Notes under the pieces: model-generated | The model's database searches: none | Told to the model about the DNA's origin: nothing | Seen by the model: the letters and a program-made list of their open reading frames with translations, nothing else | Assembly: GCA_043821445.1 (NCBI GenBank) | Contig: JBDRCT010000003.1 | Location: 5,440-69,439, forward strand | Direction of reading: 5' to 3' | Length of the DNA: 64,000 nt | From: Candidatus Omnitrophota bacterium | Lineage (GTDB): Bacteria > Omnitrophota > Omnitrophia > Omnitrophales > Aquincolibacteriaceae | Shown: positions 35,695 through 58,900 of the stretch, in pieces | Position numbering within the stretch: the stretch's first letter is position 1 | Layout: each line of letters starts with the position of its first letter | Program-made: the position numbers and the translations under genes

Positions 35695-37419
35695 CTATTT
35701 AATAAACGTAATATTGATATCTTCGCGGTGCGCGGTCGGCTCGGAATAGATCGAAATACGACTGCCCGTGTTCTTCTCGAGGAATCGTAGCGCTTTCTTT
35801 TCCTGCTGGAGCAGGCGTTCCGCAACATCCGGGTGCACATACGCATTCACGATGCGGTCCCTGGAATCCTTCAGGGACTTGCGCAATTCCCGGATGACCT
35901 GGATCGACATAGTCGCGGTCGACTTGATATTGCCCTTGCCCTCACAATACGGGCAGGTGTCGTAGACTGCGCTCTCAAGCGATGGGCGCATTCTCTGGCG
36001 CGTCATCTGGATCAGCCCAAGTTCGGAAACCTGCACCAAGTGTGTCTTGGCGCGATCTTTGCTCACCGCCTCTTTAAAAATATTAAAGAGGTTGCGGCGA
36101 TGCTGCCCTTGTTCCATATCGATAAAATCGATCACGATGATCCCGCCGACGTCCCGGAGCCGGAGCTGGCGCGCGATCTCCTGCGCGGCCTCGACGTTGT
36201 TCTTATACACGGTCTCCTCAAGACCCCGGTTGTTCCCGGTGAACTTCCCGGTATTCACATCGATCGCTACAAGACCCTCGGTCTGTTCGATCACGATATA
36301 ACCGCCCGACTTAAGATAAACATTCTTTTGGAACGTTCGCTCGATCTCTTTTTCGATCCCGTGACGTTCAAAGAGACTTCCCTTTTCCTTCGCGAACTCG
36401 ATATTGAGATCCTGCCCCGGCATATAGACCGAGATGAAGCGCTTAAGCTTCTTGAAGATCTCGGGATGATCCACTACGATCTTGGTGGTTTCTTCGTTCA
36501 CGTGATCACGGACCACGCGTTCCACAAGGCCGAGCTCCTGATGGATCATCACGGGCGCTTTTTTGGCCGAGATCATGCCGTGAATCTTCTTCCACAGCCG
36601 GATCAAATAACGGATATCCCGTGTAAAATCCGCGTCACTTCTTCCTTCCGCATTCGTCCGCACAATGAACCCAACGCCCTTCGGGATCTCCAGGCTTCTG
36701 AAGATACCCCGGATCCGCTCGCGTTCCGAACGGCTCTCCACACGCCGCGAGATCCCGATCTTTGATTCGCCGGGCATCATCACAAGATAACGTGCCGGGA
36801 TCGAAAATTGTGTCGTAAGGCGTGGCCCCTTGTTCCCGAGCGGTTCTTTGACGACCTGCACAATAACCTTCTGTCCGACTTTGAGGACCTCTTCGATCCT
36901 CGGACGCCGCTGATGCTGATAATGCTGTTGCGGTGGCTGATTCCGGCCCCCTTGTCGTCCCCCTTGCTGATGATGCCTCCCGCGCCCGCGGTCCCGTCCC
37001 CCGTGACGTCCCTGACCCCGCCCCTGCCCCTGAGGTTGTCCTGGTACTTGACCATGAACTTGGCCCGGTACCGGGGGCTGTGCCTGGAGATTGCCTTCAA
37101 CAACAACGCCTTCGGGGGGCTTTACTTCGGTGACTGTTCCTTCCGTTTTTTTCTCTTCCCCATCGTCAAATTCCGCATCGAGATCCAGTGGCGAGCGAAG
37201 CGCGTCGCCGACGTAAAGAAAACCGTCTTTCCCAGTCCCGATATCCACGAACGCAGCGTCGATCCCCGGGATCACGGTCTTCACGATCCCTTCGTAGATA
37301 TTCCCGAAAAGCTTCTTCGAGTCCCCGCGCTCGATATAGAATTCCTCAAGCCGGCCATCCTCGAGAATGGCGACTTGTTTTTCATTAGCATCCTGTGAAA
37401 TTAAAATTTTTCTTTCCAT
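35695..37419 (-). CDS. ribonuclease E/G family endoribonuclease
   Basis: 574 aa. S1 domain (VDIGTGKDGFLYVGD). RNase E/G catalytic core (DVGGIIVIDFIDM, Zn-link CPYCEGKG). Carries an internal Gly/Gln/Arg-rich low-complexity insert. Confidence 0.85.
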   Translation of the reverse strand: MERKILISQDANEKQVAILEDGRLEEFYIERGDSKKLFGNIYEGIVKTVIPGIDAAFVDIGTGKDGFLYVGDALRSPLDLDAEFDDGEEKKTEGTVTEVKPPEGVVVEGNLQAQPPVPGQVHGQVPGQPQGQGRGQGRHGGRDRGRGRHHQQGGRQGGRNQPPQQHYQHQRRPRIEEVLKVGQKVIVQVVKEPLGNKGPRLTTQFSIPARYLVMMPGESKIGISRRVESRSERERIRGIFRSLEIPKGVGFIVRTNAEGRSDADFTRDIRYLIRLWKKIHGMISAKKAPVMIHQELGLVERVVRDHVNEETTKIVVDHPEIFKKLKRFISVYMPGQDLNIEFAKEKGSLFERHGIEKEIERTFQKNVYLKSGGYIVIEQTEGLVAIDVNTGKFTGNNRGLEETVYKNNVEAAQEIARQLRLRDVGGIIVIDFIDMEQGQHRRNLFNIFKEAVSKDRAKTHLVQVSELGLIQMTRQRMRPSLESAVYDTCPYCEGKGNIKSTATMSIQVIRELRKSLKDSRDRIVNAYVHPDVAERLLQQEKKALRFLEKNTGSRISIYSEPTAHREDINITFIK

Positions 37420-37733: not shown

Positions 37734-39410
37734 TCAGGCCGGTTTGTCCTTGTTCGTATCGTCCGAGACTGCTGGTTTCTCAGAATCTTTCACGCCCGGC
37801 GCGGCATCCGTGGCAGCCGTTTTTTGCTGGGCTTGAGCATCTTTTGACTGGTCATTCTTCCCGTCAACTTTGGCACCCGCAGGCTGTCCCTGCGAATCCA
37901 CCGTAGTAACTGTTACAAAAAAGAGCGTTTCGTTTTTACTATTATCTGCCATATCCTGTCGCTTGGAGCGGAACAATTTCCCCAGCAGAGGGATATTCCC
38001 CAAAAAAGGCACTTTATCTTCTGTCGAACCCACACTATCTGACATCAATCCGCCGATCGCAATGGTCTGGCCGCTTTGGATCAATACCTGGGTCATCGCT
38101 TTGGTGATGTTGAAGGAGGGCGCTGCCAATCCTCCAGCACCCGGAATGAATGTGATCAGAGGACCGGCACTGCTTATTTCCGGCTTCAGGTCGACAAGAA
38201 TCTCCTCGGCCGAATTAATGTGGGGCGTAACATTCAAAACAATGCCCAAATTTCTGTAATTATAGCCAGACACTTCCATACTGCCGGTCGTTTCGTTCCT
38301 TTCAAAATTTGGGATCGGATAGTCCGACCCCACCTGAATACTGGCCTTCTGATTATTCAGGACAACGATCCGCGGATTGGAAATCACCTTCGTATTGACC
38401 CGGGTCTCCAGAAAATTTAACATTGCAGAAAAACTCGAGAAATCCAAAGTACCGTACTGAAGGGAAGGCGTATCCCCTGCTACCTTAGCCACATAAGGAA
38501 GGCCACGCGCATCGACTGGATTCACTACGTAATCTGCCACGGCGACGGCGCCGCCAGAGGTGGATCCCGCTAAAACTGGGAAAAACTGATTCAACGCCGG
38601 CGAAGGAGCTTCGGATGTTTGAGTAAATGGAAATGTTGTGGGACGAGTACTTCCGCTGGTAAGCCCGCCCGCAACATTCCAATCAATGCCAAGGTTTTCG
38701 ATATTAGAAACCTCTGTATTAACGATCTTGGAATCGATAAAAGCCTGGGAAGTAATCTTATCGAGTTTTTTGATCACTTCCCCGATGCGGTAGAGGTTCG
38801 TGGGGATGTCGGTCACGACAAGCATGTTGGTACGCTCCGAAGACTTTATCTTGCCGCGCTCACTCAGCATATCCATGACCGAGGCCTGGATCTCCTTGGC
38901 CTTGGAATAATTCAGGACAAAGGTCTTTGTCTCGACCGGCTCGAGTTTCATTTCTTCGCGGGTCGTCACACGGATAATGTTCCCATCGCGTTCGAAAACA
39001 TAGTTATAGGTCCTCAAGATGACACTGAGCGCTTTTTCCCAGGGAACATTATCCAACCGAACGGTCACAAGACCCTTCACCTCCGGACCGGTCACAATGT
39101 TGACGTTACTTTTCATGCTTAGCACGCGAAGCACGCTTCCGATGTCCGCATCCTTGAAATCCAAGCTGATCGTGTCATCCTCGGCTACCGGACCAGACGC
39201 CGCGGCAGGCGCTGAAGCCGCTTCCGGCACAGAAGCCGTTTGCGTTACTGCGACCGGATTGGGGTCTGCGGCAAGGACGACACCGGCCACACAAAAGAGA
39301 CACGGGAGCAATACAAGAAAAACGGATGTCCACGGTCTTGCAGCCTGGGCCTTTTGCGAAGGCGGGATAAAATGATGAGACGTTTGTTTCATGAAGTTCA
39401 CGAGCTCCAT
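37734..39410 (-). CDS. pilQ: type IV pilus / T2SS secretin (PilQ/GspD family)
   Basis: 558 aa. C-terminal secretin domain (VLIQSGQTIAIGGLMSDSV...VPFLGNIPLLGKLFRS). N0/N1-type N-terminal domains. Confidence 0.85.
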   Translation of the reverse strand: MELVNFMKQTSHHFIPPSQKAQAARPWTSVFLVLLPCLFCVAGVVLAADPNPVAVTQTASVPEAASAPAAASGPVAEDDTISLDFKDADIGSVLRVLSMKSNVNIVTGPEVKGLVTVRLDNVPWEKALSVILRTYNYVFERDGNIIRVTTREEMKLEPVETKTFVLNYSKAKEIQASVMDMLSERGKIKSSERTNMLVVTDIPTNLYRIGEVIKKLDKITSQAFIDSKIVNTEVSNIENLGIDWNVAGGLTSGSTRPTTFPFTQTSEAPSPALNQFFPVLAGSTSGGAVAVADYVVNPVDARGLPYVAKVAGDTPSLQYGTLDFSSFSAMLNFLETRVNTKVISNPRIVVLNNQKASIQVGSDYPIPNFERNETTGSMEVSGYNYRNLGIVLNVTPHINSAEEILVDLKPEISSAGPLITFIPGAGGLAAPSFNITKAMTQVLIQSGQTIAIGGLMSDSVGSTEDKVPFLGNIPLLGKLFRSKRQDMADNSKNETLFFVTVTTVDSQGQPAGAKVDGKNDQSKDAQAQQKTAATDAAPGVKDSEKPAVSDDTNKDKPA

Positions 39411-39423
39411 TGTATCACAAAAC

Positions 39424-39795
39424 CTATGCTTTTTCCTCTTCCCTTATCCAAAGCGTTTTTTCTTCCCCCCCCACAGAAATGACGACATGGTCCTTCAATA
39501 TCTTAACGACCGTTGCATCTCCCACAGTTTCACCCTTCAAATAGGACTTTCCGTTCAAAATGGCCATCGAATGTTCGCCCGGATCATAGATAATACCTTC
39601 CAGTTTAACGCCGGATGAGGTTGTGGACACTGAAGTGTTGTCGCCCCCGTCGAGCGGCACAAAGGGATCCCGCCTGTTACCGGAATCGTAAAGAACTTCA
39701 GAAGCGGCAAACACCCCCGACGCCAGAGCTAGCAGTGCTATCGCCAAAAAAAATGCGCTCTTCTTACTTCTTAGCATTCGCCACCTTCTTAGCAC
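39424..39795 (-). CDS. pilP: PilP-like pilot protein
   Basis: 123 aa. Signal peptide plus a small beta-domain (VKLEGIIYDPGEHSMAILNGKSYLKGETVGDATVVKI). Position between pilO and pilQ. Confidence 0.55.
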   Translation of the reverse strand: MLRRWRMLRSKKSAFFLAIALLALASGVFAASEVLYDSGNRRDPFVPLDGGDNTSVSTTSSGVKLEGIIYDPGEHSMAILNGKSYLKGETVGDATVVKILKDHVVISVGGEEKTLWIREEEKA

Positions 39796-40447
39796 CCGCT
39801 GCCTTCTTCGTCTTCGCGGGTGGCGCCACTTGCGGCGGAGCTTTCAGGATCGCCCAAAGCTTCAGCTCCGCAATATGCCGTCCCGGCGTTTTTTTATCCG
39901 GCACGACCTCGAGGCTCTGTATTCTTAAAAGTTTTCCATGACTCTCAATGCGGCTCATCAAATTGCCAAGGTCATGATAGCCGCCGTGCACCGTGAATTC
40001 ATAGCCACGCGGTTGATATTTCAAGTGATAGGGTGCCGGAAAAGCCACTTTCGCGGTCAAAGGCTTCGAGGTCAACACTTCCACGCGCGACTCACTCGCC
40101 ATTTTTGAAGCGGAGCCCAACAATAGATCCATATCCTCGACCGTAAAAACACGAGCCCAGGTACTTTCAATGAGCGAACCGAACACCTTCTGATTCTCTT
40201 CCCATTCCGGCCGTTTCTTATTCAGGTCATTGACCTGGCGGATCTGAGTTTCCATGCTTTGAATATCACGCCGGAGCATGGGACGCTCGATCCAAGCCGG
40301 AATGACCAGAAAAACCACCAACAATAAAAAACCTATCGCACACAAAAAACCGACCACCCAGGTTTTTTTATCGACACTTTTCAGAAATGCTATAACATCG
40401 GCAAAAGGCAGGTTGAGCGGCTTCATGGTTTGGAGGTCACTCCCCAT
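39764..40447 (-). CDS. pilO: PilO
   Basis: 227 aa. Single TM, coiled coil, periplasmic domain, K/A-rich tail. Gene order pilM-N-O-P-Q. Confidence 0.6.
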   Translation of the reverse strand: MGSDLQTMKPLNLPFADVIAFLKSVDKKTWVVGFLCAIGFLLLVVFLVIPAWIERPMLRRDIQSMETQIRQVNDLNKKRPEWEENQKVFGSLIESTWARVFTVEDMDLLLGSASKMASESRVEVLTSKPLTAKVAFPAPYHLKYQPRGYEFTVHGGYHDLGNLMSRIESHGKLLRIQSLEVVPDKKTPGRHIAELKLWAILKAPPQVAPPAKTKKAAGAKKVANAKK

Positions 40448-41001
40448 TCAATTTGAGCGACAAAAATGGTCCCTTCCGTCTTTTCGTTGGCCCTTTTAGA
40501 AGTCGCTACCGCGACGGATGTTTGGAGCGGCAATTTCGTTTTCAGTTTCTGGAAATATTCCTCGATCTGTTCAATGCCGGTCTGTGTGCGGGATGCCAAC
40601 ACCACACCCTCCAGGGTCAACCGGCATCCACCGCCTTCCCGCTCCACTTTGAGTTCTGTAAGCCATCCCCTTGGAGGCAGGAAATCGCTCGCCCAAAAAA
40701 GTATCTGGGTGATGGGTTCCTTATTGAGCACGTTCGTTTCCAGAAAATCTTTTTCGCCCTTCATTTCAACCGCAACCTGCTGCTCCAGGGTCTTCAGCTG
40801 TGCCATGAGGGGACTCAACCTCGCCCATTCCTTACGCACGCCTTCGTAGGCAGAGCGCGCCTTGAGATAGTCTCCGTAGAAAAAAACCGTCATAAGAAGA
40901 AAAAGCACCCCGGCCAGAAGAGCCAGTGGAATATAGGGAATGCGCGTCGCGTTCGATTTCCCTTTCAGGAGCTCCTGAGGCAAAAGATTGATCTTGATCA
41001 T
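40423..41001 (-). CDS. pilN: PilN
   Basis: 192 aa. Starts MIKINLLPQE (PilN signature), then a TM. Confidence 0.75.
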   Translation of the reverse strand: MIKINLLPQELLKGKSNATRIPYIPLALLAGVLFLLMTVFFYGDYLKARSAYEGVRKEWARLSPLMAQLKTLEQQVAVEMKGEKDFLETNVLNKEPITQILFWASDFLPPRGWLTELKVEREGGGCRLTLEGVVLASRTQTGIEQIEEYFQKLKTKLPLQTSVAVATSKRANEKTEGTIFVAQIEWGVTSKP

Positions 41002-42095
41002 TCTTCGCGAAGCCCCAGTCCCAGCGCTACGGGTAAGAGAGATGTATTCGTTTTGAGAAGTTCGGGATCAACGCCCGGGGCCCATTTGATCTTCGGAAGG
41101 ATGTCCATAGTCACGACCGGGATCTGCAATCCTTCGCTTAATGCCTTCAAAACGGCGGGATGAGACACTACACCGCTCAAAAAGAGTTTTGCGACAGGTT
41201 TCGATTGTCCGGATTGATCATGATAATAGTCAAAAGAAACACGCAGGTCCCGGATCAACCCTTCAAGACTTTCCGTGATCGCTTGCACTTCATCGGGCGC
41301 CAGAGTTCCATTATTTTCAAAAAGATTTTCGATCTTTTCATCCGCGAGACTGGAACGGGTCTTGAACCGCTTGAAAAGATCGTAGGCCCCGTAAGAAATG
41401 TCACGGACAAAGCGGGGCTTCCCTTCCCGGATGATCCCGAGGGTTGATATCTCAGTGCCAAGGTCCAAAATGCCGCTGTGCCTAGAGAAATCTTCGAGGT
41501 GAAAATATTCCAAGGCGGCCATCGCCGAAAGAATGTCGACGTCCACCACCGACAGGCGGCATTCCAAATTACGGAAGATCTCAAGCGTCGGCTCAAGTTC
41601 CTGGCGTTTGATGGCGACCAACATTACTTCCATCTTTACGCCGTCATCGGTCGCGAAGGCCTCCTCCACCACCGCACAATCGAGCACCACATCGTTCAGC
41701 TCGAACGGAATGTACTGCTCGGCTTCGTATTTCATGGCACTGCGGAGATCATCGGCTTTCATTTTCGGAAAAGGGATGAAACGGATCACAACTCCGTGCC
41801 CCTTGAGGGCCACGCGGATCCCGTCCTTCCGGAACTTCTTTCCGTCCAGGAACGGTTTCAGGATCAAGGACGGTTTCTGGTCCTGGGAAGCGTTCTTGAT
41901 AATATCGAGATGATGAACAAAAAGATGTCCGGGACGTTTTTCAAGTTCAAGCAGTACCGTCCGCATGCGGCCAAGATCACACGCCGTGACCTTAGAAACC
42001 GCCGTTTTTTTCGACAGGATCATGGATGTAACACCATTTAAAAAATTTGAGAACTGTTGATCGGGCGAAGCCAACTTGTTGGAATCGTTATTCAT
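40998..42095 (-). CDS. pilM: PilM (actin-like ATPase)
   Basis: 365 aa. FtsA/actin fold. Upstream of pilN with a 4-nt overlap. The true start is probably internal to the tracked ORF. Confidence 0.7.
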   Translation of the reverse strand: MNNDSNKLASPDQQFSNFLNGVTSMILSKKTAVSKVTACDLGRMRTVLLELEKRPGHLFVHHLDIIKNASQDQKPSLILKPFLDGKKFRKDGIRVALKGHGVVIRFIPFPKMKADDLRSAMKYEAEQYIPFELNDVVLDCAVVEEAFATDDGVKMEVMLVAIKRQELEPTLEIFRNLECRLSVVDVDILSAMAALEYFHLEDFSRHSGILDLGTEISTLGIIREGKPRFVRDISYGAYDLFKRFKTRSSLADEKIENLFENNGTLAPDEVQAITESLEGLIRDLRVSFDYYHDQSGQSKPVAKLFLSGVVSHPAVLKALSEGLQIPVVTMDILPKIKWAPGVDPELLKTNTSLLPVALGLGLREE

Positions 42096-42133
42096 GAGAG
42101 AGAGATTAACAGAAAATCTCCAAGAAAACAGCC

Positions 42134-42168
42134 AAAAAAAACCCGCCCTGCTTTTTTCAAGCAGGGCG
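42134..42168 (-). terminator. Rho-independent terminator of the pilin gene
   Basis: On the minus transcript: 10-bp stem cgccctgctt / aagcagggcg with a 5-nt loop, followed by U8. Confidence 0.85.
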
Positions 42169-42201
42169 AGTCGAAAACCACTTTGTCTTGTTCCTTACTG
42201 A

Positions 42202-42681
42202 TTACCCACCAATGGCCGTACCACCCGCGCAACCCGTATCGGCCGCGGTCGGCGCTACACCTGCCGTCGGACCATAAACAACACCCGCCTGGTCAATGCA
42301 GTAGGTGTTTTCCGCAGCAGCCGTCGGCGTCGCCAGCAGAGAATACGTGCTGGAAGGAGAGGCGACCGTAAGGTACGTCAGAGTGAACCCATGCTTGACT
42401 CCGGCTTCGACCCACGAATCATCAAGATACGCAGGGCCCGTCGCCGGAGCGGTCGTCAATGCGGCAATATCAGCCGGATAGTCCGGAGGATTCTGCGCGG
42501 CACGATAACTTTCAGCAGCTCCGCTGAATGTCCTCAGATCCGACTTGATGGCACCCTCATTGGCATTGATTCGCGCCCGGAGAAGATTGGGGATGGCAAT
42601 AGCGGCCAAGAGCCCGATGATCGCAACTACGATCATGATCTCCACCAGCGTAAAACCCTTCCTATTTAATTTGATAAACAT
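42202..42681 (-). CDS. pilA: type IV pilin (prepilin with N-terminal methylation motif)
   Basis: Start MFIKLNRKGFTLVEIMIVVAIIGLLAAIAIP is a class III signal (G|FTLVE). ATG at 42681 is preceded by AGGAGG. The tracked ORF has a 23-aa upstream extension. Confidence 0.85.
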   Translation of the reverse strand: MFIKLNRKGFTLVEIMIVVAIIGLLAAIAIPNLLRARINANEGAIKSDLRTFSGAAESYRAAQNPPDYPADIAALTTAPATGPAYLDDSWVEAGVKHGFTLTYLTVASPSSTYSLLATPTAAAENTYCIDQAGVVYGPTAGVAPTAADTGCAGGTAIGG

Positions 42682-42872
42682 GTTATTCCTCCTGTTTCTA
42701 TGTTTGCCACTGCCTACTACTAGCCTAAGCTGGTATACATCATACGACAATACGTTGGATAACTAAACTAGTTTTTTTGTTATCCGAGTTATATCCCACA
42801 ACTTTAATAAGCATCACTGAAGGGCCCTGAGGCAGATTCCTGCATGTTTTTGCGTCGGGAGGAAGGATTTCC

Positions 42873-44114
42873 TTATTTGATCGCCTGAGTAAGCGTAAGG
42901 ATGGGAAGAAAGAGAGCGATCACGATACCGCCGATCACGATACCCAGAAAAGCAATAATGAGCGGTTCGATGAGAGATGTAAGACCGGAAACAGCAGTGT
43001 CCACTTGGGTGTCATAAAAGTCCGCGATCTTTGTAAGCATCTCTTCCAATTCTCCGGTTTCTTCTCCGATCGCGATCATACGAACGACCATGGAGGGAAA
43101 GATATCGCTTTTCTCGAGTGGGCTGGCAATGCTTTCTCCGCGCTTCACGGATCCCATAAGATCCGTAATGACTTTTTCGATCCGGGCATTCCCTGAAGTT
43201 TTAGAAACGATCTCCAGAGCCGCGAGGATCGCCACGCCGCTACGCAATAGCGTGGAAAGTGTGCGCGCAAACTTGCTAACCGCCACTTTTAAAATGATCG
43301 GGCCGAAGATAGGCATGCGAAGTGTGAAGGAGTCCCAAGGCAACCGGCCCATCGGAGAGCGAACGAATTGCCGGAACAGGAAAATACTTCCGCCCAGGAC
43401 GGAGAGGATCCACCACCAATTCGCCGCAAGATAGTTACTGATACTGATCAGGATCTGAGTTGGCGTAGGCAGTTTTGCGTTGAGACCTTCAAAGATCGTT
43501 GCGAACTGCGGGATCACGAAGGCAAGCATGAAGAACGTGATCCCGAAGGCCATGACCGAAACGGCCGTCGGGTACATCACCGCAGCTTTGACCTTTTTTT
43601 GAAGGGCGCTGGACTTTTCGAAATAATGGGCCACGCGGTCCAGGATCTCCTGCAACTTCCCGCTCATCTCACCCGCACGGACCATATGAATGAAAAGCGC
43701 CGAAAAGACTTTTTGGTGCACTTGCATAGCTTCGGAAAGACTTTTACCGGTTTGGAGGTCGCTATGCATCCTCCGAAGAACCAGCCGGAACTTCTCCTTA
43801 TCCATCTGTCCGGCGAGAATGTCCAGAGCCTGGATCAAGGGGATCCCTGCTGCGACGAGCGTGGCCATTTGCCTTGAAAAGATCACAAGGTCGTCCAACT
43901 TGATTTTCCCGGACTTTCCCTGCCGGATCTTGGGAGGGGCCGACCCCTTCTGAATACTCAGGATGGCAGATCCCTTCTTGGCCTGTTCCACACGGACTAC
44001 AAGATAGCCCTGCGTCTTCAGCTGGTGGACGAGCTCTTGCACGTCCTGGGCGTCCTGGAAGCCCTTCAGATCTTTTCCCGTCTTATCCTTGACCCAATAT
44101 TCAAACGATGGCAT
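42873..44114 (-). CDS. pilC: type IV pilus platform protein PilC / GspF family
   Basis: 413 aa. Two T2SSF repeats. Three TM segments. Confidence 0.9.
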   Translation of the reverse strand: MPSFEYWVKDKTGKDLKGFQDAQDVQELVHQLKTQGYLVVRVEQAKKGSAILSIQKGSAPPKIRQGKSGKIKLDDLVIFSRQMATLVAAGIPLIQALDILAGQMDKEKFRLVLRRMHSDLQTGKSLSEAMQVHQKVFSALFIHMVRAGEMSGKLQEILDRVAHYFEKSSALQKKVKAAVMYPTAVSVMAFGITFFMLAFVIPQFATIFEGLNAKLPTPTQILISISNYLAANWWWILSVLGGSIFLFRQFVRSPMGRLPWDSFTLRMPIFGPIILKVAVSKFARTLSTLLRSGVAILAALEIVSKTSGNARIEKVITDLMGSVKRGESIASPLEKSDIFPSMVVRMIAIGEETGELEEMLTKIADFYDTQVDTAVSGLTSLIEPLIIAFLGIVIGGIVIALFLPILTLTQAIK

Positions 44115-44117
44115 AGC

Positions 44118-45812
44118 TCACTCCCGGCTTGCAACGCGAAGCACTTCCTCGAGCGTGGTCACCCCGGATTTAAAGAGTCCCAGTGCGTTCTCGAAGAGTG
44201 TCTCCATTCCCTTTTCAACGGCAAGCTGATGAATAACATTACTCGATTTTTTCCGGATTACAAGCTCCCGGATGTCCGGGTCCACAAGCAGCACTTCACT
44301 TGCGCCGGTCCTGCCAAAATATCCCGTCATGTTGCACTTGATACAACCCTTTCCCGTGAACGGGGCGATCCTGTCCAATTCCGACTTGGAAAATTTACAG
44401 CGAAACAGGACTTCCGCGGGTATGACGGCCGGGGCCCTGCAATTCGGGCAGATCTTCCTGAGTAGACGCTGGGCGCCAACGCATACGACCGACGAGGCGA
44501 TCAAAAAAGGCTCCACTCCCATATCGATAAGACGTGTCATCGCACCGGCCGCGCTATTCGTATGAAGTGTGCTGAACACTAGGTGCCCGGTCAAGGCGGC
44601 TTTTACCGCAATATCGGCAGTCTCCGAATCGCGGATCTCTCCCACCAGTACAATGTCCGGACTTTGGCGCAAGAGAGCGCGTAAACCGTTCGCGAACGTA
44701 AGCCCGATCTCCGGTTGCACCTGCGTCTGCGTGATCCCTTCAACCTGATATTCGACAGGATCCTCTACGGTCATTAAATTCTTTTGCGGCGTGTTCAGAG
44801 AGTTAAGGATCGAATATAGAGTGGTGGATTTCCCACTGCCCGTCGGCCCGGTGATCAGGATCATCCCATAAGGCTTTTTGACCGCCTCAGCAAGAGCACG
44901 CGTCGGTTTTTCCGTAAAACCAAGCTTGTCAAGCCCCGTCCTGATCCCGCTCCGGTCCAGAACGCGCAACACCATTTTCTCGCCGAAATAGGTTGGCAAC
45001 ACGGAAACACGAAAATCGATCTGCCGGTCCTTGAGTAATAACCGGAACCGCCCGTCCTGGGGTAAACGTTTTTCAGTAATATCCAAAAGAGAAATGATCT
45101 TCGCCCGCGCCACGAGAGCGGGATAAAGCTCCAAGGAATGAGAAAACGACTCTTTCAAAACCCCGTCGACACGGTACCGAATACGGAATTCTTTTTCATA
45201 AGGCTCGAAATGGATGTCGGACGCGCGCGATTTGAGGGCTTTTTCGAGAATGAAGTTGACCATCTTGATGACGGGTGCATCATCGACTCCGGCCTGCACG
45301 ACAGACGGCAACTCCGTTTCATTCTCTCTGACAAGCTCCAGGCTGTCTGCGTCTTTTTCGGTAATGAACTCAGAAAAGTTTTTGCTTTCCGCGTAATGGT
45401 CGCTGATGGCAGCGGCGATCCGTGCAGGCGTGACCAATACCGGACTCACATCGCATCCCGTCAGATGCTTGATATCATCGAAAACCCTCAGTTGGAATGG
45501 ATCGCTTGTGGCCACGGTCACAAGTTTCCCGACGCGTCCTACCGGAAAAACATGATGCAGCTCAATGAATTTCCGTGAAAACATCCTCAGGACTTCTAGA
45601 TCGAACTGCATTCCGTGGAGATTCAAGGTGGGGATCTCAAGTTGAGCGCTCAAAAAATCCATGACCTCTTCTTCCAACAGGATCTTTTCTGAGAGGATAA
45701 TTTTCAAAATGCTTTCATTGTGTTTCTGTGCCGTCTGTTCCAAACGGTCACACTCCCCGTCGGAAAGCCCCATTGTTTTCACCCATGCTCGAACGATTTG
45801 CTTGTCGATCAT
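44118..45812 (-). CDS. pilB: type IV pilus assembly ATPase PilB / GspE family
   Basis: 564 aa. N-terminal T2SSE_N domain. Walker A ITGPTGSGKSTT. Tetracysteine CPNC...CIKC. Confidence 0.9.
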   Translation of the reverse strand: MIDKQIVRAWVKTMGLSDGECDRLEQTAQKHNESILKIILSEKILLEEEVMDFLSAQLEIPTLNLHGMQFDLEVLRMFSRKFIELHHVFPVGRVGKLVTVATSDPFQLRVFDDIKHLTGCDVSPVLVTPARIAAAISDHYAESKNFSEFITEKDADSLELVRENETELPSVVQAGVDDAPVIKMVNFILEKALKSRASDIHFEPYEKEFRIRYRVDGVLKESFSHSLELYPALVARAKIISLLDITEKRLPQDGRFRLLLKDRQIDFRVSVLPTYFGEKMVLRVLDRSGIRTGLDKLGFTEKPTRALAEAVKKPYGMILITGPTGSGKSTTLYSILNSLNTPQKNLMTVEDPVEYQVEGITQTQVQPEIGLTFANGLRALLRQSPDIVLVGEIRDSETADIAVKAALTGHLVFSTLHTNSAAGAMTRLIDMGVEPFLIASSVVCVGAQRLLRKICPNCRAPAVIPAEVLFRCKFSKSELDRIAPFTGKGCIKCNMTGYFGRTGASEVLLVDPDIRELVIRKKSSNVIHQLAVEKGMETLFENALGLFKSGVTTLEEVLRVASRE

Positions 45813-47578
45813 GGGCCGCCCCCTCTGGGTGGTAACCCAGCATCCGCTATCGTAACGCGGAAAACCTCATCGAGCGATGTTTCGCCCGTTAGGGCCTTTT
45901 GGACCGCAGATTCGCGCAGCGTGTTCATTCCGTGTTCTCGGGCTCTGGCCTTGATCGCATCCGCGGACGCACCTTGCATGATCAGCTCCAAGATATCCGG
46001 CTTCATTTCCAGGATCTCGGTGATCACGCTCCGGCCCTGATATCCCAGTTGGCGGCACTGCGAACAGCCTTTGGCTTTCCAGAGCTGGACCTTCTTTTTC
46101 GGATCCAGGTTCAGGAACTTATACATATCCGGTTCTAGATCGTATGCGAAGCGGCAACGCGGGCAGAGGCGGCGCACCAAACGCTGGGCCGAGATCATCA
46201 GCACCGTCGACGCAATCAGGAACGGCTCTAGTCCCAAATTCGCCATGCGGGTCACAGAACTCACCGCATCGTTGGTGTGAAGCGTGCTCAAAACGAGATG
46301 ACCCGTAAGCGCGGCCTTGACGGCGATATCGAGCGTTTCCGCATCGCGGATCTCCCCGATCAAGATAATGTCAGGATCTTGACGCAGGATCGAACGGAGA
46401 GCCGCGGGAAACGTCAACCCAATGGATTCGCGAACATTGACCTGATTGATACCGGCTATCTGATATTCCACAGGATCCTCGACGGTCGTGATATTGACCT
46501 GTGGAGAATCCAAATACTTAAGGACCGAATAAAGTGTGGTCGTCTTCCCGCTCCCGGTCGGCCCGGTCACGAGGATCATCCCATGCGGCTTCTTGGCGGA
46601 AGTCCGGATCACCTCCTGCTCTGATGCCGTAAACCCGAGTTTTTGAATGTCATGAGACTGTGCCCCGGTATCCAAAATGCGTAAGCAAACTTTTTCGCCG
46701 AAGCTGGAAGGCAATATGGAAACGCGCATGTCCACTTCCCGGCCCTGAGTTCTCACTTTAAAACGGCCATCCTGAGGCACTCGATGCTCCGCAATATTGA
46801 GCTGACTCATGATCTTGACGCGGGAAACAATGGCATCGCCAAAACTTTTTTGGGGTCTTACGATCTCTTCGAGAATACCGTCAATGCGCATGCGGATCCG
46901 GACAAAACCTTCCCAGGGTTCAATGAAAATATCGCTCGCACGGCGACGCACCCCCTCCACGAGCGCCATGTTGACAAGTTTCACGACTGGGGCCTGGTTC
47001 GCCTGCTCCATGAGGTCCGAGGCCTGCTGCTGCTTATCGAAGATCGCTTCGCTTTCGACCATATGGGCAAGAGAGATGAGGTCTTCGGTGCCTTCATCCG
47101 GAACGGGTTCTTCCAAGACAGCGGTCTCTCCCTGATAGGATTTCTGTATGTATTCCTTGAGCTGGGAATATTCCGCCACCGAGACCCGGATACGCTTTCC
47201 GGTCAAGGAGTGAAGTTCATCCAAAGTCTTTAGATTGGTCGGATTCGCAACCGCGACCGTCAACGTATTTTCATAGAGAACGATCGGGAGACACACATAG
47301 GCCTCCGCGATCTTCCGGGGAATGAGTTCCAGGACTTCTTTGTGAATGATAAGCATTTTGAGACTGACGATACGATAGCCGTACTCTTTACAAAGAATGT
47401 CCACGAGTTTTTTTTCGTCGCATTTTCCTTTCTGAAGAAGAATGTCCAGAAAATGGAGCTTTTTCGAGCTCTTGGCCTGCTCCTGGATCGCCTGCTGAAG
47501 TTCCCCTGAATTGACGACCCCGAACCGAAGAAGGGCTTCTTTCAGGTCCGGCAATGAACTTCGCTTGGGGTCCGTCAT
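45809..47578 (-). CDS. second GspE/PilB-family secretion ATPase (paralogue)
   Basis: 589 aa. N-terminal T2SSE_N-like domain. Walker A VTGPTGSGKTTT. Tetracysteine CPRCR...CSQCR. 4-nt overlap with pilB. Confidence 0.85.
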   Translation of the reverse strand: MTDPKRSSLPDLKEALLRFGVVNSGELQQAIQEQAKSSKKLHFLDILLQKGKCDEKKLVDILCKEYGYRIVSLKMLIIHKEVLELIPRKIAEAYVCLPIVLYENTLTVAVANPTNLKTLDELHSLTGKRIRVSVAEYSQLKEYIQKSYQGETAVLEEPVPDEGTEDLISLAHMVESEAIFDKQQQASDLMEQANQAPVVKLVNMALVEGVRRRASDIFIEPWEGFVRIRMRIDGILEEIVRPQKSFGDAIVSRVKIMSQLNIAEHRVPQDGRFKVRTQGREVDMRVSILPSSFGEKVCLRILDTGAQSHDIQKLGFTASEQEVIRTSAKKPHGMILVTGPTGSGKTTTLYSVLKYLDSPQVNITTVEDPVEYQIAGINQVNVRESIGLTFPAALRSILRQDPDIILIGEIRDAETLDIAVKAALTGHLVLSTLHTNDAVSSVTRMANLGLEPFLIASTVLMISAQRLVRRLCPRCRFAYDLEPDMYKFLNLDPKKKVQLWKAKGCSQCRQLGYQGRSVITEILEMKPDILELIMQGASADAIKARAREHGMNTLRESAVQKALTGETSLDEVFRVTIADAGLPPRGGGP

Positions 47579-47593
47579 GATCGCCTTTTCATA

Positions 47594-48037
47594 TCAGGAT
47601 GTCTCGTGATAAATGAAAAAGATCGCATTCAGAACTTCGGAGATCCGGGCAAGGAACACCTGGGGAATGCGCCCGGTCATCGTCCGGATCTTCTCAACGG
47701 CCGTGTCGTTCATGGGGTCCGTCATCGCGACATACACCTTTTTATGATCGCAATCGAACGCTACAACCATGTTCTCATGGCAAAAACCCGCCGTCAGCAT
47801 ACCGGCCATGTCGGGATTGATCGCGTAATTCCTAAGCGGGATATAAGGCATTTTGAACTGCCTGCACAAAGCGCCGATCAGCGACTCCTCGTCCACAAGC
47901 TTTTTTTCAATGAGGATCTGGCCGATCATGCCGCCCTTTTCTTTCTGAAAGGCAAGGGCCTCCTCCAACTGAGCTTTGGACAAAAGCCCATCCTCGATCA
48001 AGATCTCTCCGATCTTTTTCTTTTTTTTGGGTTCCAT
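47594..48037 (-). CDS. standalone T2SSE_N / MshEN-like domain protein
   Basis: 147 aa. KIGEILIEDGLLSKAQLEEALAFQ and MIGQILIEKKLVDEESLIGALCRQ match the tandem L-rich 24-residue motifs of MshEN-type c-di-GMP-binding domains. Sits immediately upstream of the tandem ATPases. Confidence 0.55.
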   Translation of the reverse strand: MEPKKKKKIGEILIEDGLLSKAQLEEALAFQKEKGGMIGQILIEKKLVDEESLIGALCRQFKMPYIPLRNYAINPDMAGMLTAGFCHENMVVAFDCDHKKVYVAMTDPMNDTAVEKIRTMTGRIPQVFLARISEVLNAIFFIYHETS

Positions 48038-48116
48038 TTTACCCCTTGTTCAATTCACTTATCTTTAAGTAACGGCACAAGTTGTAAAGAATTTTATGTT
48101 TTTTGCCCGTACTTCC

Positions 48117-48842
48117 CTAAAAAAACCGCTGGAGAGGACATCTTTCACAGCGGGGAACTTTCCGGCAATGATCTTTCCCCGTCCGGACGATCTGGGCGTG
48201 GAAATCGTTATAAAGGTCCCGGTTTTCCGGCAATGCCCGCATGAAGATCTCCCGCCATTGTTCATAGGTGTCACGGTCTTTGGCCAGCCCATGTCTGGAA
48301 AAGATCCTTTTGGTGTAAGCGTCGATCACGAAGGACATCTTACCCAACGCGTAAAGAAGGATGGAATCTGCCGTCTCAGGTCCCACTCCTTTGACAGTGA
48401 GAAGTTTTTTGCGAAGCACAGGCATTGTTTTCCGTTTCAGTTTTGAAAGATCACCCCGGCATTCCTGTTCCAAAAAATCCATGAAAGCCTTGAGCCGGTC
48501 CGCCTTGACGTTGAAGTATCCGGACGGCCGGATCAACTGTGAAAGCTTCTTTGCCGGGATCCGGCGCAGGGCTTCAAACGAAAGCTTCCTGGCTTCCTTT
48601 AGATTCAGAATCGCTTGTTCGACATTCGTCCAGGCGGTATTCTGCGTCAGGATCGCCCCGATCATAACCTCAAAAGGGGTGTCCCCCGGCCACCACCGCT
48701 GATGTCCAAAAGCCTTCCGCAAGGCCGTGTAAACCAGGCGAAGCTGTGAAGTTTTAAGTTTACGCTTTTTTTGACAAGGGATAGGTTTCAAGGATCTCAT
48801 ACCGAACGCCTTCCGGAAGAAGGTGACTTTGATAGAGAACAA
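48117..48842 (-). CDS. endonuclease III-family (HhH-GPD) DNA glycosylase-like protein
   Basis: HhH-GPD motif LLTVKGVGPETADSILLYALG...VIDAYTKRIF. N-terminus probably starts at MRSLKP (48800). C-terminal Cys cluster is incomplete (3 Cys). Confidence 0.7.
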   Translation of the reverse strand: MFSIKVTFFRKAFGMRSLKPIPCQKKRKLKTSQLRLVYTALRKAFGHQRWWPGDTPFEVMIGAILTQNTAWTNVEQAILNLKEARKLSFEALRRIPAKKLSQLIRPSGYFNVKADRLKAFMDFLEQECRGDLSKLKRKTMPVLRKKLLTVKGVGPETADSILLYALGKMSFVIDAYTKRIFSRHGLAKDRDTYEQWREIFMRALPENRDLYNDFHAQIVRTGKDHCRKVPRCERCPLQRFF

Positions 48843-52986: not shown

Positions 52987-55900
52987 TTACGCGGCAGACT
53001 GGATCGCCTGCAACGCCTGCATTGCGATTACCAGCATCTTGCTCAAAGCATCCTGGCTGAACGAACGGAAACCATTTTCATCTTTCTCTCCGTTGAGTAC
53101 TTCCTTGATCGCATCGACCTCGCTCGCGCTCAGGATTCGCTGGGACACGATGGACGCAAGGGTCGAAGTCGCGACCCGGCGGCTCACATCCGTACTATAA
53201 GGCTCCTTGATCATGAGCCCCCTGCCTGTATCCGTCTTGAACACTTTCAAAAATTGATCGGAACCCATAAAGACATAACCCAGTGGCCCTCTGGAAATCG
53301 CCGGCATTGTTTTCATTTTCGAGGTGATAAAATTATTCAGAGCAGTTTCCGGATTATTCTTATCGACCACGATGATATCAAAACGTTTTTCGGCGTTTAA
53401 TTCCTTAAGAGTTTTTGCTAATCGCTGCTCCATTCCCCTCTTTCGTTGCTCTGCTGCCGCAACTTCAGCCGCACCGTCCGCCATCAACACCATAACCTTC
53501 CCTTGCATTTTATTAACCAATGTCCCGAGATCTGCGGGCTCAATGATCGCATCCGCAGGCACGAGCTCAATCTCAAGCCCCTGCTTGTCCATGATTTCAA
53601 TTTGGGTCGTTTTCCCAAATAATGCTCCTGCCAACCCAGTAAAGACATCCCGAATAGCGGTGACCCAACCCGCGGTTTTCGCAGCGCTCGCGTTCGCAAG
53701 TTGCACAATAACATCAGCCATTTGCTCCGCCTTCAACCCGTCATCGAACACCATCCCCGCCACCGCCGCTACAATGACCGGCCCTTTCGCTCCCTGAACC
53801 TCCAGATTATTCACTGCCTCGACATTTGGCCCAATTTTAGCCTGCTCGACAACCAACATATCAGCAGGTGAGATTGCTTCACGAACGACCCTCATCTCGG
53901 AGCGTTGAGTTCCCGGCTCAGCTCCCGGAGATTCGGTTTCAAGGCGCTTTCCAACGGCCTTGAGTTCAGCCGCAACACGAGTTTTTTCGATTTTTGCTGC
54001 TTCAGCTTCGCGCACCTCAGAACGTTTCTCCGTCCCAGGCGCTCCACCCGGCATCTGATCGGTAAATTCCCTTTCAACAAAATCGTTCAACTTATCGATG
54101 CTGACTTCCTCCAGATCCCTGAAGGTCGCGAACATCTTCCTGGCCCCTTCCGCCCAGGATTCCTTTACTTTGGGCGGCTCACTCTCCCAAATAGCCAACA
54201 AGTCACTCACCGTCCTCCAGCGGGCATACTCATTTTCTCCCCTCCCGCCGTTCATCTTGAACCGGTCATAAATGGCGCCGGGATTGGCTTCCAAAACATA
54301 TTTTTGTATCGGGATGTACTTACCCTTAATTCCTGACAAGACCGCGAACCCTTTTTGCTGCGCCAGCCCCAACGCAACACAGAGAAGTGCTAATCCCGGA
54401 TGGAGCCCAATGCGCTGCGGAAAGGTCTCCCGAATCTGTTCCTTTTGATTAAGCCCGCCCGTGATCACAGCCACTCTCAATGCTTCACCGTTCTCTGCCT
54501 GCTGAGTATCAACGCCGATGCGATAGATCCATTGGGTCCTCTCACCTATCGCCTCCCCGATGGCTATGAGAACCCCGGAGGAGCCTTTCCCGAAGCCATA
54601 GCGCATTTCGATCAAGTAGGGTGTGCCACTGATACGCGCGATCTGTACGGATTGACGTCTCCGGAACTCCGGAGCGAACATCTGTTCCATTTTTTTCATA
54701 TTCTGTGTCGCCAAAACTAATTTTGTTTTGCTATCAAGTCCCGGCGGCAGATTGTAAAAAAACCGCCCTTGAGGATTCTGATCGATACGATATTGGCTCA
54801 AATAGGTCCTGAAAAAATCCTCGAAAACTTCGGCGGGAACGTTCCGCGGCACGACCTGGTTCTCCATCATCCACTCGAACAAGCTCCCGGTCTGCTTCTC
54901 TTCGATCTCCATGCTTTCCCGGAGCTTTTGGGACAAAAGCTTTAGCAGCTCATCGCAGGGTTTTTTTGTGAATGCCCGGATCCTGAAAATATAGTCCAGG
55001 GTTTGTTGGACCAGATCGAGCCTAAGCGGCTCACCCGCCGAAGGACTCAAAAGCCATGAAGCAATCTCATTCGCCTTCTCGTTCGAAAGGATCTGCCGTT
55101 TCTTGACGGAAACCGTCAGATACCCCAAAATATCCTCCCGCGTCTCGGAGCGAGCTGAAGGTATGGCCTCTTTAAGATGACCTGCGAGAGACTCCAAATA
55201 GGCTTCATCCACTTGCGGACCGACCCAATCGGGAGACTTTGTGAGATAGACTTTAGGATCGGGCTGGAGACCGTAGCGGTTCAGGAAATCCAAAAGCGGT
55301 GTGCTTTGTTTCCCGAAGTTATTTGGGTCGGTGTGATACCCTGCAGTTCCTAGTTCCTTTCTCATGTTCACCGTAATCCACTCCGGCGGCGACTCTTGGA
55401 GCGAATAAGCGTCAGCACAAACGGTCACGAATGTTTCGGTTCCAAAGATCTTCCCGGCCAGTTGATCCAGCTCCTTACCCTTCAGTTCAACGATCACAGG
55501 CCTGAACCACCATCCTATCTTTTGCATCGTCCAAATACGAATCGCCACAGGGCCCAGGATCTTTTCTGATGGCGGAACATGGACAAAATAAGTGATAAGT
55601 CCTTCGCGTAAAGCACGCGACCCCCAGTTCCCTTCGTTAATGGGTACTAAATATTGCTGCGTCCACGTTCCAACATCCGGATGGGCGTCAAAATTCACCA
55701 GGATCGGCAAAGCGGGGTTGGCCTCCCCCCGTTGTTTTCTCTCGCGGAACCGCTCCCGGAGATAATCTAAGACCCCGTCATGGGTCTCGATCGTGACCAC
55801 TTCTGTCCCAACTTTCGTCAGGACTCCTTTTCGCATTTCGGAGCGGGAAACGGGCTTTTCAGCAATGAGTTCGGAATAAGGCACGCGACGGCCGCCGAGT

Positions 55901-58900
55901 TCGTCTAGGGATTGTCTGGCTTTTTCGCGCTGAGCCTTGTAGAAAAGAAAAAGAAGCGCGGGAGCTTTGGCGGGGTTGAATCTGGCAATCTTACCGTATT
56001 TCCCTTCGTCCACGTCCATGGCCTTTTCGAGATCTTCCGGGGAAACCGCCTTTACCACATCCGAAAGCCACGCCGCCATCTTCATAACATTATCGATCTT
56101 TTGAAGAGGAGTGAGTTGAGAAGCGAGTCCGTTGAGACGCTCCAGGTCTGCTTGCTGGGCAATGATCAACAGAAGTATGGGAGATGTCGTTTCCGGAGTA
56201 CCCGGGATTTTTTTAAGTTCCTCTTCTAACTTCAACCCCGCCTTGTCAAATGTTTCGATGGTGGTGGGCGGACCACGATTCCTTTGGACATCCCCATGAA
56301 AAACTTCCACTATTTCGTCCGGGGCCACCCGGAAGATGATCTCTCCCCTTTCAAGCATCTCTGGGACCGTCTCTTCATCTTTGACCCCAAAAAGTTCGCG
56401 GGCGCTCCCGGAAACGGCTGTAATGGCCTGATCTCCGCCTTTATAGCCAACCCCGTCCATGTTTTGATATTCATGGAAGGCTCTCGGGATCGCCTGTCCC
56501 TTGTAACCCAGAACAATGAGGTGTCTCGTTTCCTTAATATCAACTTTCCGCGCTGCCTCCTGTCCCGCTCCTTCGGTTAAGAGACCTGTAAGGGTGTCGA
56601 TGATCTTCGGGTCCCTTTTTTCAGAGCTCGATGCCCGTTCTGCGAGCTTTTTCGACACCTCTTCGATCTTGTCCCGAGTCACTTCCTTTTTAACAAAAAT
56701 CCCGACTTTCACCTGATTCCTTTTCTTTTTAGCTTCCGAAAGTGCGTCATTGGCCAGCCACATCGCGCACTCATCAAAAAGTTCTATGCGCTCAGGCCTT
56801 AAAGTTTCTACGTCATCCTTTATATAAGTCCAATAATTGCCGCCGTCCTCGTGCTTAACGTCTTTCATCACCTCTTTAAAATAGTCCAGCACCCCGGACT
56901 GTTCCGGGAATTCAGGGTTCCCGGCAGCAGGAGCCGCTCCGATAGAAATAGTGAGAAATCCCCATTTTTGGGGAGTTGCGTTTTCAGATTGGATCTTTTC
57001 AAATCGGATCTCGTGAAGCTGATCGCCTTCCAGATTCAGTTTCGTATGAAGATCTCGCAAAAAGTCCTGCCATTTTCCCTCAGCATCTAACTTCCTCCGA
57101 TCGACACGGATGTATGTGCTCCCCGCATAAAGCACTGCGCTAAGTACGGAAGCATATTCTTTTGATTCGAAAATCTTCGCTTCATTTTCAGTAAGCGTTT
57201 TCTCCACTTCTAAAACCGCATAGCGTCCAAAAAATTCTTCATTGAGGTCTCGCAGGAAATTCTCCAGATCTTCTTGGGTAACTTTCCTTGCGGGAACGAA
57301 TATGATTTCATCGCCTCCAACACCCCGGTAAACTTCTAGGCCATATTTTTTGGCGATCACAAGTATCGTTTTCCGGTAATCGAGAACGGGTGAGTCTTTG
57401 GGCGTGATAAGATGCTCACCCGATCTTTCCAGGCTCATGACCCCCACGATGCCTTTCCCGCCGAGTGCGAGATTCTTGGCGCCGATCTTATCGAAATCCG
57501 ACATATAAAAACGGAAATTTTGAAGATCCGTCACACTTGGGTGTGCCCGCAGATATTTCAAACGTTGTTCCTTTCCGTCGTCCTGTGTTCCCCAGCCGTC
57601 CGATGATTTGAAAGCGTCCGGTTCAACACGAATTCCCAATTTTTCAGCTGTCTCAGGCGTCAATCGCGTGCTTGCGGGAATGGTAACCGTTTCAATTTCT
57701 CCGGTTTCCGAATTCCGGTGCGTGATCTTGAGGCCACCCTCTACTGCTACCTGGAGGTTCAGCAAATCTGCTACTGCCGCTTTGTGACTTGTCGGCGGAC
57801 TCGAATAGACATCGACAGCGCCGCCTTCTCTCATGGCCACTTCCAGCCCCCGAAGCTGCTCATTGATCTCGTCGATCTTCTCCTGTGTTATTTTCTCTGT
57901 CCGCATCTCGGAGCGTGGGAAAGCCATCAAAGCCGTTGCCGGTGTTTGCTGGGTGAACCGGTCCCCGGTATCGCCGCCATCAACAAAAAGAGCCTCCTTG
58001 ATGTCATAGGTGGTGTGCCAGTTTTCTAATGCCTCTATAAGCTTAGCCGTGGTCGGTCCCGTCCAACCAAAAATATCCCAGCCAAAAATATCCAGAGTGT
58101 GGACCCTTCCGCTTGGATCTACCCCCACAACGCTTTTCCGGCCTGAGAAAATACTTTTATGCCAATTCTCAATATTAGGATTCAAATTTCCTTCCGTGAT
58201 AGCCATGGGACCGGCCTGAAAACCTTGCGCCCATTGCTCTTTCGGGTAATTCTCCGGACGAAAGCCTTCTGCTGGCCTGATAAGCACGTCTCCGTTCCTG
58301 TTCAGTAGAAAAATTCCTTTCAACATGGCTGATCCGTTTTCTATGAATGCCCTATCCTGAGCATCCTCGCTCAACCGGAACCACCCTATGGCTCTCCTGC
58401 TTATCTCCCTAAAAGGATTGGCGTTCGAGACGTAGGTCCACCCCTCAGCCAGCAGTTGTTTGATATCCTTCCGTTCCACAATGCGGAACTCATATTTTTT
58501 GGGATCGAATTCGCGGGTCCCTTCGCTACTCCAATGATCGACCGTTGCCTTCTGTGCCACCCCAATCCCAAGAGACAAACCAAGAGCCCCCAGCAACAAG
58601 TTCCGCCTTGAGAAGATTTGAACCTCTTCCTGCCGCATCTCGGAACGCCCCTTGCCTTTGGGCGTGGCAGCTTTTCCGGCTTTTGCTTTTTGTGGACTGG
58701 GTTTCACGGTTTTCGGAGGGGTCTTTAAAATAGGATCCAGTTGTCGCGCGTACTGATTGAGCTCTGGGGTCAACCGTTCTACGGTATCTTTCGCATCGCG
58801 AACGGCCTTTGCCGCCTCGTTTTTGATCATTTCCCATTCGGCCGCCGTGTACCCTTTGTTGGAATAACCTTCCAGTTTTTTAAGCATTCGGCCGGCCTCA

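Follow-up and report, generated by a model that had tools for sequence, protein, structure and literature searches.

The MshEN domain, exemplified by the N-terminus of MshE, an ATPase from Vibrio cholerae (5HTL), binds c-di-GMP (cyclic dimeric GMP) and is defined by a pair of 24-residue motifs in tandem, with a spacer of 5 residues between them (PMC5013675). In the pilus motor PilF of Thermus thermophilus, three such domains, known as GSPII, are carried in cis, and binding and non-binding copies are mixed within one motor. Two PilB-family assembly ATPases, PilB and TfpB, apparently operate on a single platform in Acinetobacter baylyi (PMC11656802), and in the FimX-PilZ-PilB system of Xanthomonas (7LKO) a separate c-di-GMP sensor protein reaches the motor via the N-terminal domain of PilB. 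Stand-alone MshEN proteins, dual extension motors and in-trans control by c-di-GMP are each already known. Here, we analyze a type IV pilus locus of a Candidatus Omnitrophota bacterium (assembly GCA_043821445.1), in which a free-standing MshEN protein of 147 amino acids is encoded directly upstream of two tandem PilB-type ATPases, denoted A and B. The locus lies in a 64,000-nt stretch of contig JBDRCT010000003.1 (positions 5,440 to 69,439), hereafter the window, to which all coordinates refer unless a related locus is named. A literature search found no description of a detached predicted binder combined with two tandem PilB paralogues with decayed sites and conserved in two deep Omnitrophota clades.

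Judged by sequence and predicted structure, the small protein shares with the MshE N-domain the two-subdomain fold, the paired motifs with their spacer and the Gly/Leu/Gln ligand contacts, but the domain is free-standing rather than the N-terminus of an ATPase; furthermore, the two stacking Arg residues give way to Lys and Met, and the second turn Gly to Lys. The full two-motif pocket appears to be kept in the Arg-free form known from PilF GSPII-B (8PDK), in which motif I has Lys and motif II a hydrophobic residue. As in PilF, domains predicted to bind and not to bind would be mixed for one pilus motor; however, whereas the three GSPII domains of PilF are present in cis, the three MshEN-type domains here are distributed over three polypeptides, the small protein being the predicted binder and those of A and B being degenerate. 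The likeness to A. baylyi lies in the pair of PilB-family ATPases apparently sharing one platform, although neither A nor B is a TfpB equivalog (NF053534 scores of 475.7 and 458 bits, respectively, under the cut-off of 850), and here the genes are tandem and overlapping, stand alongside an MshEN protein and are conserved in the sampled Omnitrophota loci. In Xanthomonas, finally, an EAL-domain protein paired with a PilZ adaptor acts as the receptor, whereas the predicted receptor here is a copy of the motor's own N-domain.

All pilus locus genes considered here are encoded on the minus strand (37734-48842). The gene for the small protein (47594-48037), the first of the operon and assigned as a predicted c-di-GMP receptor with Pfam, NCBIfam, AlphaFold2 and Foldseek, is preceded by an AAGGGG ribosome-binding site, and its stop codon lies 15 nt ahead of the gene for ATPase A (45809-47578; 589 amino acids). 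The genes for A and ATPase B (44118-45812; 564 amino acids) share 4 nt (ccATGAtc), and the stop codon of B is separated by 3 nt from pilC (42873-44114), which encodes a platform protein of 413 amino acids (two Pfam T2SSF stretches, 217 bits; NCBIfam PilC and GspF models, ~400-409 bits). By this layout, A and B are co-transcribed, and the ATGA overlap suggests that they are also translationally coupled. A preliminary description of this DNA, made without database searches, had already recognized two tandem full-length PilB/GspE-type ATPases with T2SSE_N domains, Walker boxes and tetracysteine motifs, their 4-nt overlap, and an upstream protein made of an MshEN domain alone; our examination of open reading frames (ORFs), Pfam domains and motifs bears out all of these points.

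MshEN is the sole Pfam domain of the small protein (46.9 bits), which also scores 60.9 bits against the NCBIfam c-di-GMP_motif model NF053729, above its cut-off of 38 bits. Its homologs form more than 120 clusters at 60-95% identity, nearly all of them exactly 147 amino acids long, which indicates that the gene is real; every named cluster comes from Candidatus Omnitrophota, and no database record of an identical 147-residue protein was found. Motif I (residues 8-31, KIGEILIEDGLLSKAQLEEALAFQ; 47945-48016) and motif II (residues 37-60, MIGQILIEKKLVDEESLIGALCRQ; 47858-47929), both quoted exactly in the preliminary description, flank the 5-residue spacer KEKGG (47930-47944). This spacing is canonical, and the motif layout fits the MshEN/GSPII definition. 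The hydrophobic triads at motif positions 2, 17 and 21 and the Gln at position 24 are all in place (Ile9, Leu24, Leu28 and Gln31; Ile38, Leu53, Leu57 and Gln60), as is the Gly at position 3 of each motif (Gly10 and Gly39). Eight of these residues (Gly10, Leu24, Leu28, Gln31, Gly39, Leu53, Leu57 and Gln60) are invariant among 118 family members. Position 1 is more relaxed in the same set, with Lys in 72 and Arg in 42 members for motif I, and Leu in 106 and Met in 8 for motif II; position 10 of motif II, in the turn, is Lys in 80, Asn in 20, Arg in 6 and Gly in 3.

The motif-initial residues of the window copy are Lys8 and Met37, so that neither Arg is present. This is not disqualifying, because substitution of the corresponding Arg residues in V. 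cholerae MshE changes affinity less than five-fold, whereas the G11L and G40I mutants show poor, if any, c-di-GMP binding (PMC5013675), and because PilF GSPII-B binds c-di-GMP with a dissociation constant of 6 nM with K167 and L196 at the motif-initial positions and no Arg (PMC11731258). The latter study extended the consensus at position 1 to (R/K/L) and proposed that very high affinity can be predicted from a hydrophobic residue at that position (PMC11731258). The Gly at position 3 has been singled out as important, an Ala in its place (A41) obstructing the c-di-GMP pocket (PMC12002112). The AlphaFold2 model of the small protein (predicted local distance difference test score, pLDDT, 88.4) consists of a four-helix N-subdomain and an alpha/beta C-subdomain. 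Its best PDB matches found by Foldseek, both with probability 1.00, are c-di-GMP-bound MshE (5htl; TM-scores of 0.78/0.82) and c-di-GMP-bound PilF GSPII-B (8pdk; about 0.76/0.81).

Both ATPases have the N1D-N2D-CTD organization (two N-terminal domains and a C-terminal domain), with Walker A and B motifs, Asp and His boxes, Arg fingers and a tetracysteine motif; Pfam scores are 66.6 (A) and 65.3 (B) bits for MshEN/T2SSE_N, and 462 and 449 bits for T2SSE. The Walker A Lys, the Asp-box Glu residues, the Walker B Glu, the second His-box His, both Arg fingers and the four Cys are invariant in 43 orthologs of A and 37 of B, from which we predict that both are catalytically competent, active enzymes. 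Their classification is based on NCBIfam and PDB scores, the plasmid collection considered as a reference source containing mostly GspE. PilB (TIGR02538) is the best-scoring family for both, although the scores of 617.5 (A) and 635.4 (B) bits are under the cut-off of 675.65, followed by GspE (TIGR02533), with 590 and 589 bits against a cut-off of 630.25. The closest solved structures are the PilB proteins of Geobacter and Myxococcus (484 bits for A and 499 for B), compared with 429 bits for A against B on the same scale. The N-terminal domains of the two motors contrast with the small protein: A reaches only 24.3 bits with the NF053729 model, B has no match, the positions equivalent to Gly3 are occupied by Lys or His, and in motif II of B by Leu. 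In the clade of the window, where the pattern is clear, the MshEN domains of A and B have lost the c-di-GMP-binding residues, the essential motif glycines among them.

To place this arrangement in context, we compared related loci retrieved by a pattern scan with one genome per species, which returned 47 loci. Nearly all are from Omnitrophota metagenome-assembled genomes (MAGs), a few carry the label 'uncultured Planctomycetales', and one, from Coprococcus, shows a PilB-PilT-PilC arrangement of the ordinary kind. Two clades can be distinguished: clade 1, which includes the window and has small proteins with 60-92% identity to the window copy, and clade 2, with 30-42% identity for the small protein and 44-54% for the ATPases. 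In both clades, every sufficiently long locus displays the order small gene, A-like, B-like and PilC, and the first ATPase always best matches A and the second always B. In a neighbor-joining tree, 179 of 200 bootstraps unite the A sequences of both clades in one monophyletic group, whereas groupings of A with B within a clade appear in 0 and 2 of 200, indicating that the A/B duplication predates the divergence of the two clades. Of 16 clade-1 loci, 14 have the ATGA overlap as called, the remaining two probably reflecting start-codon miscalls by the ORF caller. All 52 small proteins pass the NF053729 model (E <= 1e-9), and most have the KEKGG spacer. The residues matching Gly10 and Gly39 are invariant in 52 proteins drawn from both clades, and 50 of 51 small proteins retain Gly3 together with Gln24 in each motif. 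Between the clades, the N-subdomain of the small protein, which holds the ligand site, is 50% identical and its C-subdomain 28%, whereas the equivalent N-subdomain regions of A and B are 24% and 18% identical, respectively, and the ATPase cores 55-57%.

Several side observations concern the same set of loci. The MAGs that carry the trio under the label 'uncultured Planctomycetales/Planctomycetia bacterium' (L022, L026, L028, L030, L038, L039, L042, L044 and L048) appear either to be mislabelled or to show that the arrangement reaches beyond Omnitrophota. A second stand-alone MshEN protein of 150-160 amino acids, with both Gly and both Gln kept, is encoded between B and PilC in four clade-2 loci (L025:14056-14520, L026:13991-14467, L030:13976-14428 and L033:6079-6561). 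Within the small proteins of clade 1 (47594-48037 in the window), Cys86, His87 and His144 are invariant and Cys96 nearly so, whereas these positions are unconserved in clade 2; the four residues, located in the C-subdomain, could form a lineage-specific metal or redox site.

We consider it likely that the small protein binds c-di-GMP. The preliminary description had proposed that its motifs fit the c-di-GMP-binding MshEN consensus, and this holds for the hidden Markov model score, Gly3, the triads and Gln24 but not for the turn Gly of motif II. It had further made the reading depend on conserved Arg and Gln positions; both Gln residues are there and the two Arg residues are not, which taken to the letter goes against the reading, although PilF GSPII-B has made this test outdated. 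Other observations weigh against a c-di-GMP receptor as well. Met37, although hydrophobic, lies outside the published R/K/L set, which Lys8 of motif I fits, and at position 10 the Gly that motif I retains (Gly17) is replaced by Lys46 in motif II. Even with its consensus restored, PilF GSPII-A remains unable to bind c-di-GMP, showing that the motif alone is insufficient (PMC12002112). Many A and some B N-termini of clade 2 pass NF053729 at 38-68 bits, and approximately 24 of the best 150 representative matches are stand-alone MshEN proteins of 145-180 amino acids; such proteins are common in databases, so that the architecture alone is not special. No GGDEF, EAL or HD-GYP gene was recognized in the 64-kb window. 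In clade 2, a HAMP-GAF-GGDEF-family protein of ~475 amino acids is encoded immediately 5′ of the small gene in most loci (L022-L045; for example, L043:7393-8811 and L024:8542-9963), and the Pfam GGDEF domain of the L043 protein scores 108 bits; yet only in L043 is the signature canonical, being GDNEF, GDHEF, SWDEF or SSDEF elsewhere, and the RxxD I-site is not kept. These degenerate signatures indicate that most clade-2 copies are probably inactive as cyclases. The clade-2 operon is nonetheless joined by a c-di-GMP-family signalling gene.

The clade-2 motors that still pass the motif model limit the decay of the motor sites in another respect, namely, the loss of binding is clear only for the clade of the window. 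The Gly3 positions of the clade-2 ATPases are occupied by Thr, Ser, Ile or Arg, and loss of c-di-GMP binding by these motors is probable.

The near-consensus motifs of GSPII-A, together with the departures of the window copy at positions 1 and 10 of motif II and the lack of a recognizable c-di-GMP turnover gene in the window, would also suit a protein that is a ligand-independent structural adaptor, a 'landing pad' resembling GSPII-A, with an N-subdomain conserved for protein-protein contacts. We regard such an adaptor as unlikely. The ligand contacts of 5htl and 8pdk (Gly3 and Gln24 of both motifs and the Leu triads) are kept in 50-52 of 52 relatives spanning ~35% overall identity, and no other part of the protein is as conserved as the N-subdomain; by contrast, GSPII-A lacks both Gln and one Gly, all of which the small protein has. 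In addition, access to the site in GSPII-A can be obstructed by a helix alpha1 that is lengthened and capped, and by contacts between the subdomains (PMC12002112), whereas in the model of the small protein helix alpha1 begins at residue 9, with no such N-terminal extension and no cap, and the alpha3-turn-alpha4 element is retained despite Lys46. The GGDEF-family neighbor in clade 2 likewise speaks for a receptor rather than an adaptor.

The surroundings of the trio identify the machine that it would serve. Downstream of pilC lie genes for a type IV pilin (42202-42750; N_methyl motif, 35.5 bits, with a GFxxxE prepilin domain), the true start of which is probably the internal MFIKLNRKGFTLVE at about 42681, PilM (40998-42095; Pfam PilM_2), a PilN-like protein (40423-41001), PilO (39764-40447; Pfam PilO), a PilP/GspC-like protein (39424-39795; Pfam T2SSC) and the PilQ secretin (37734-39410; Pfam Secretin/STN/Secretin_N), all on the minus strand. 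The order from PilM to the secretin (37734-42095) is kept in related loci. No GspL/M or GspH-K genes were found with Pfam among the locus neighbors, which are instead of the PilM/N/O type. With PilC, PilMNOP, a secretin and a pilin present, the gene content identifies the operon as the core of an Omnitrophota type IVa pilus machine and not a secretion system. The proposal of a second-messenger-gated secretion or pilus motor with a detached receptor is therefore retained in its pilus form, the computed evidence supporting a receptor, and dropped for secretion.

With a single PilC, a single PilMNOP set and a single secretin, the locus offers one machine to two motors. Bacteria with several PilB homologs usually assign them to separate machines (PMC11656802), and A and B are only 42% identical overall and 21% in their N1 domains, so one might suppose that they are merely co-located and serve separate outputs, for example with one extending the pilus and the other serving secretion or DNA uptake, or with the two handling different pilins. 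The single set of platform components, the tandem A-B order conserved across the sampled Omnitrophota loci, the frequent ATGA overlap in clade 1 and the precedent of two extension motors on one machine in A. baylyi (PMC11656802) render separate outputs distinctly improbable in our judgment.

The preliminary description had also stated that the locus lacks a retraction ATPase. This is correct for the window, in which tblastn found no third PilT-like ATPase within the 64 kb, but not for the system as a kind. In four clade-2 loci (L031:5943-7079, L039:2138-3235, L042:8884-9948 and L043:8834-9898), a PilT-type ATPase of 354-378 amino acids with T2SSE as its only domain is encoded directly upstream of the small gene, between it and the GGDEF-family gene; the order in L043 is GGDEF, PilT, MshEN, A, B and PilC. 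PilT homologs are abundant in Omnitrophota. A comparison of ten PilT proteins with clade-1 small proteins by NCBI accession number placed none in the same genome block. Absence of PilT from the window could be explained if one of the PilB-like ATPases had taken over retraction. However, PilT/PilU proteins (TIGR01420) are recognized by scores above 319 bits, a length of ~350 amino acids and the absence of N1D and of the tetracysteine motif, whereas A and B score 179.5 and 197.7 bits, respectively, and both carry the N1D and the four Cys of the zinc motif typical of extension ATPases. Given also that bona fide PilT genes stand beside the same A-B pair in the four clade-2 loci and that PilT is widespread in the phylum, such a takeover is highly improbable.

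From the fold, the ligand-site residues, their conservation and the synteny, we infer a ligand, a partner and a sign of regulation along the following lines. The small protein would bind c-di-GMP and then act in trans: its C-subdomain, homologous to the docking N1 domain of PilB/GspE, would contact the motors or the PilM/PilC platform, and the loaded protein would thereby permit or adjust pilus extension. Docking on the stator is the role generally assumed for the N1 domain. In MshE and PilB, binding of c-di-GMP to the MshEN domain in cis is required for function, while the ATPase rate in vitro is unchanged (PMC11656802), and in Xanthomonas a separate receptor reaches the N-domain of PilB (7lko); it is from these three premises that gating in trans follows as a possibility. 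We put gating of extension in trans by the small protein, on the motors or on the PilM/PilC platform, at even chances.

The trio could plausibly have arisen by the splitting of a PilF-like ATPase that carried several GSPII domains. The top representative matches of 1042-1080 amino acids are PilF-like ATPases with four MshEN repeats, and no Rosetta-stone fusions of the small protein were found among the top representative-library matches. Carried further, A and B might together make up a single hetero-oligomeric motor, such as A3B3, or engage the one PilC platform strictly one after the other, with the c-di-GMP-loaded small protein as a detachable third N1 module that chooses between the paralogs, a triple-GSPII motor of the PilF kind split into three polypeptides; we offer this as a speculation of low probability.

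Other features of the region were noted. In the window, five codons separate the TGA stop codon of the 147-residue ORF from the start codon (ATG) of ATPase A, and the two share a frame (47576-47596), so that read-through would yield a PilF-like protein with two MshEN domains. Conserved stop-codon read-through joining the two was nevertheless rejected, since the frame relation is absent in L001, L002 and L004, and in the window it is probably due to chance. On the upstream side, a gene for an endonuclease-III-like protein (48117-48842, minus strand) is separated from the small gene by 79 nt. A strong terminator-like hairpin of 14 pairs followed by a T-run (42140-42172, minus strand) is located just after the pilin gene. 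Adjoining the secretin gene is an ORF for an RNase E/G-like protein (35695-37419, minus strand) that has, near residue 120, a low-complexity insert of ~70 residues in which Gly, Arg and Gln abound (GQGRGQGRHGGRDRGRGRHHQQGGRQGGRNQ). A 'symbiotic' F-type ATPase has been reported near the Omnitrophota pilus locus (PMC10066038), but its presence here was rejected, the window ORFs 29845-31371 and 32256-33623 being AsmA-like and CCA/poly(A)-polymerase-like.

The window also contains a giant ORF, located upstream of the pilus operon at a distance of five genes, which extends to the window edge (52987-63990, minus strand) and encodes at least 3667 amino acids. Its only Pfam content is a Metallophos domain at residues 366-450. 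Near residue 2222 it contains the segment VYRGVGGDEIIFV, with DFDKIGAKNLA before and DTLTGLL after it; this YRGxGGDE(I/F) segment is conserved and reads GGDEF in L003 and L004. Despite the resemblance to a GGDEF/palm domain, a diguanylate cyclase within this ORF is not supported by profile models: no Pfam GGDEF domain was detected even at E = 10, an hhalign comparison with the GGDEF domains of clade 2 aligned no more than 16 residues, a DxLTGL stretch, at a probability of 55%, and a database search with the GGDE segment returned no match.

Even in model organisms, the coupling of c-di-GMP to pilus extension by the N-terminal MshEN/N1 domain is still a puzzle (PMC11656802), and A. baylyi has raised the question of whether two extension ATPases can share one machine. 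Omnitrophota provide a natural experiment, with the sensor domain physically apart from two motors whose own sensor sites have decayed in the lineage of the window, in an arrangement conserved in two deep clades of a phylum whose members are ultra-small and probably depend on hosts. Because all three proteins are small, soluble and easily expressed, the hypothesis is biochemically testable without cultivation. Type IVa pili are reported to be near-universal in Omnitrophota and have been proposed to serve in host attachment, in a study that mentions neither PilB, PilT nor c-di-GMP (PMC10066038). If the split triple-GSPII motor proves true, these tiny predatory or parasitic cells would gain a switchable pilus for attachment to their hosts.

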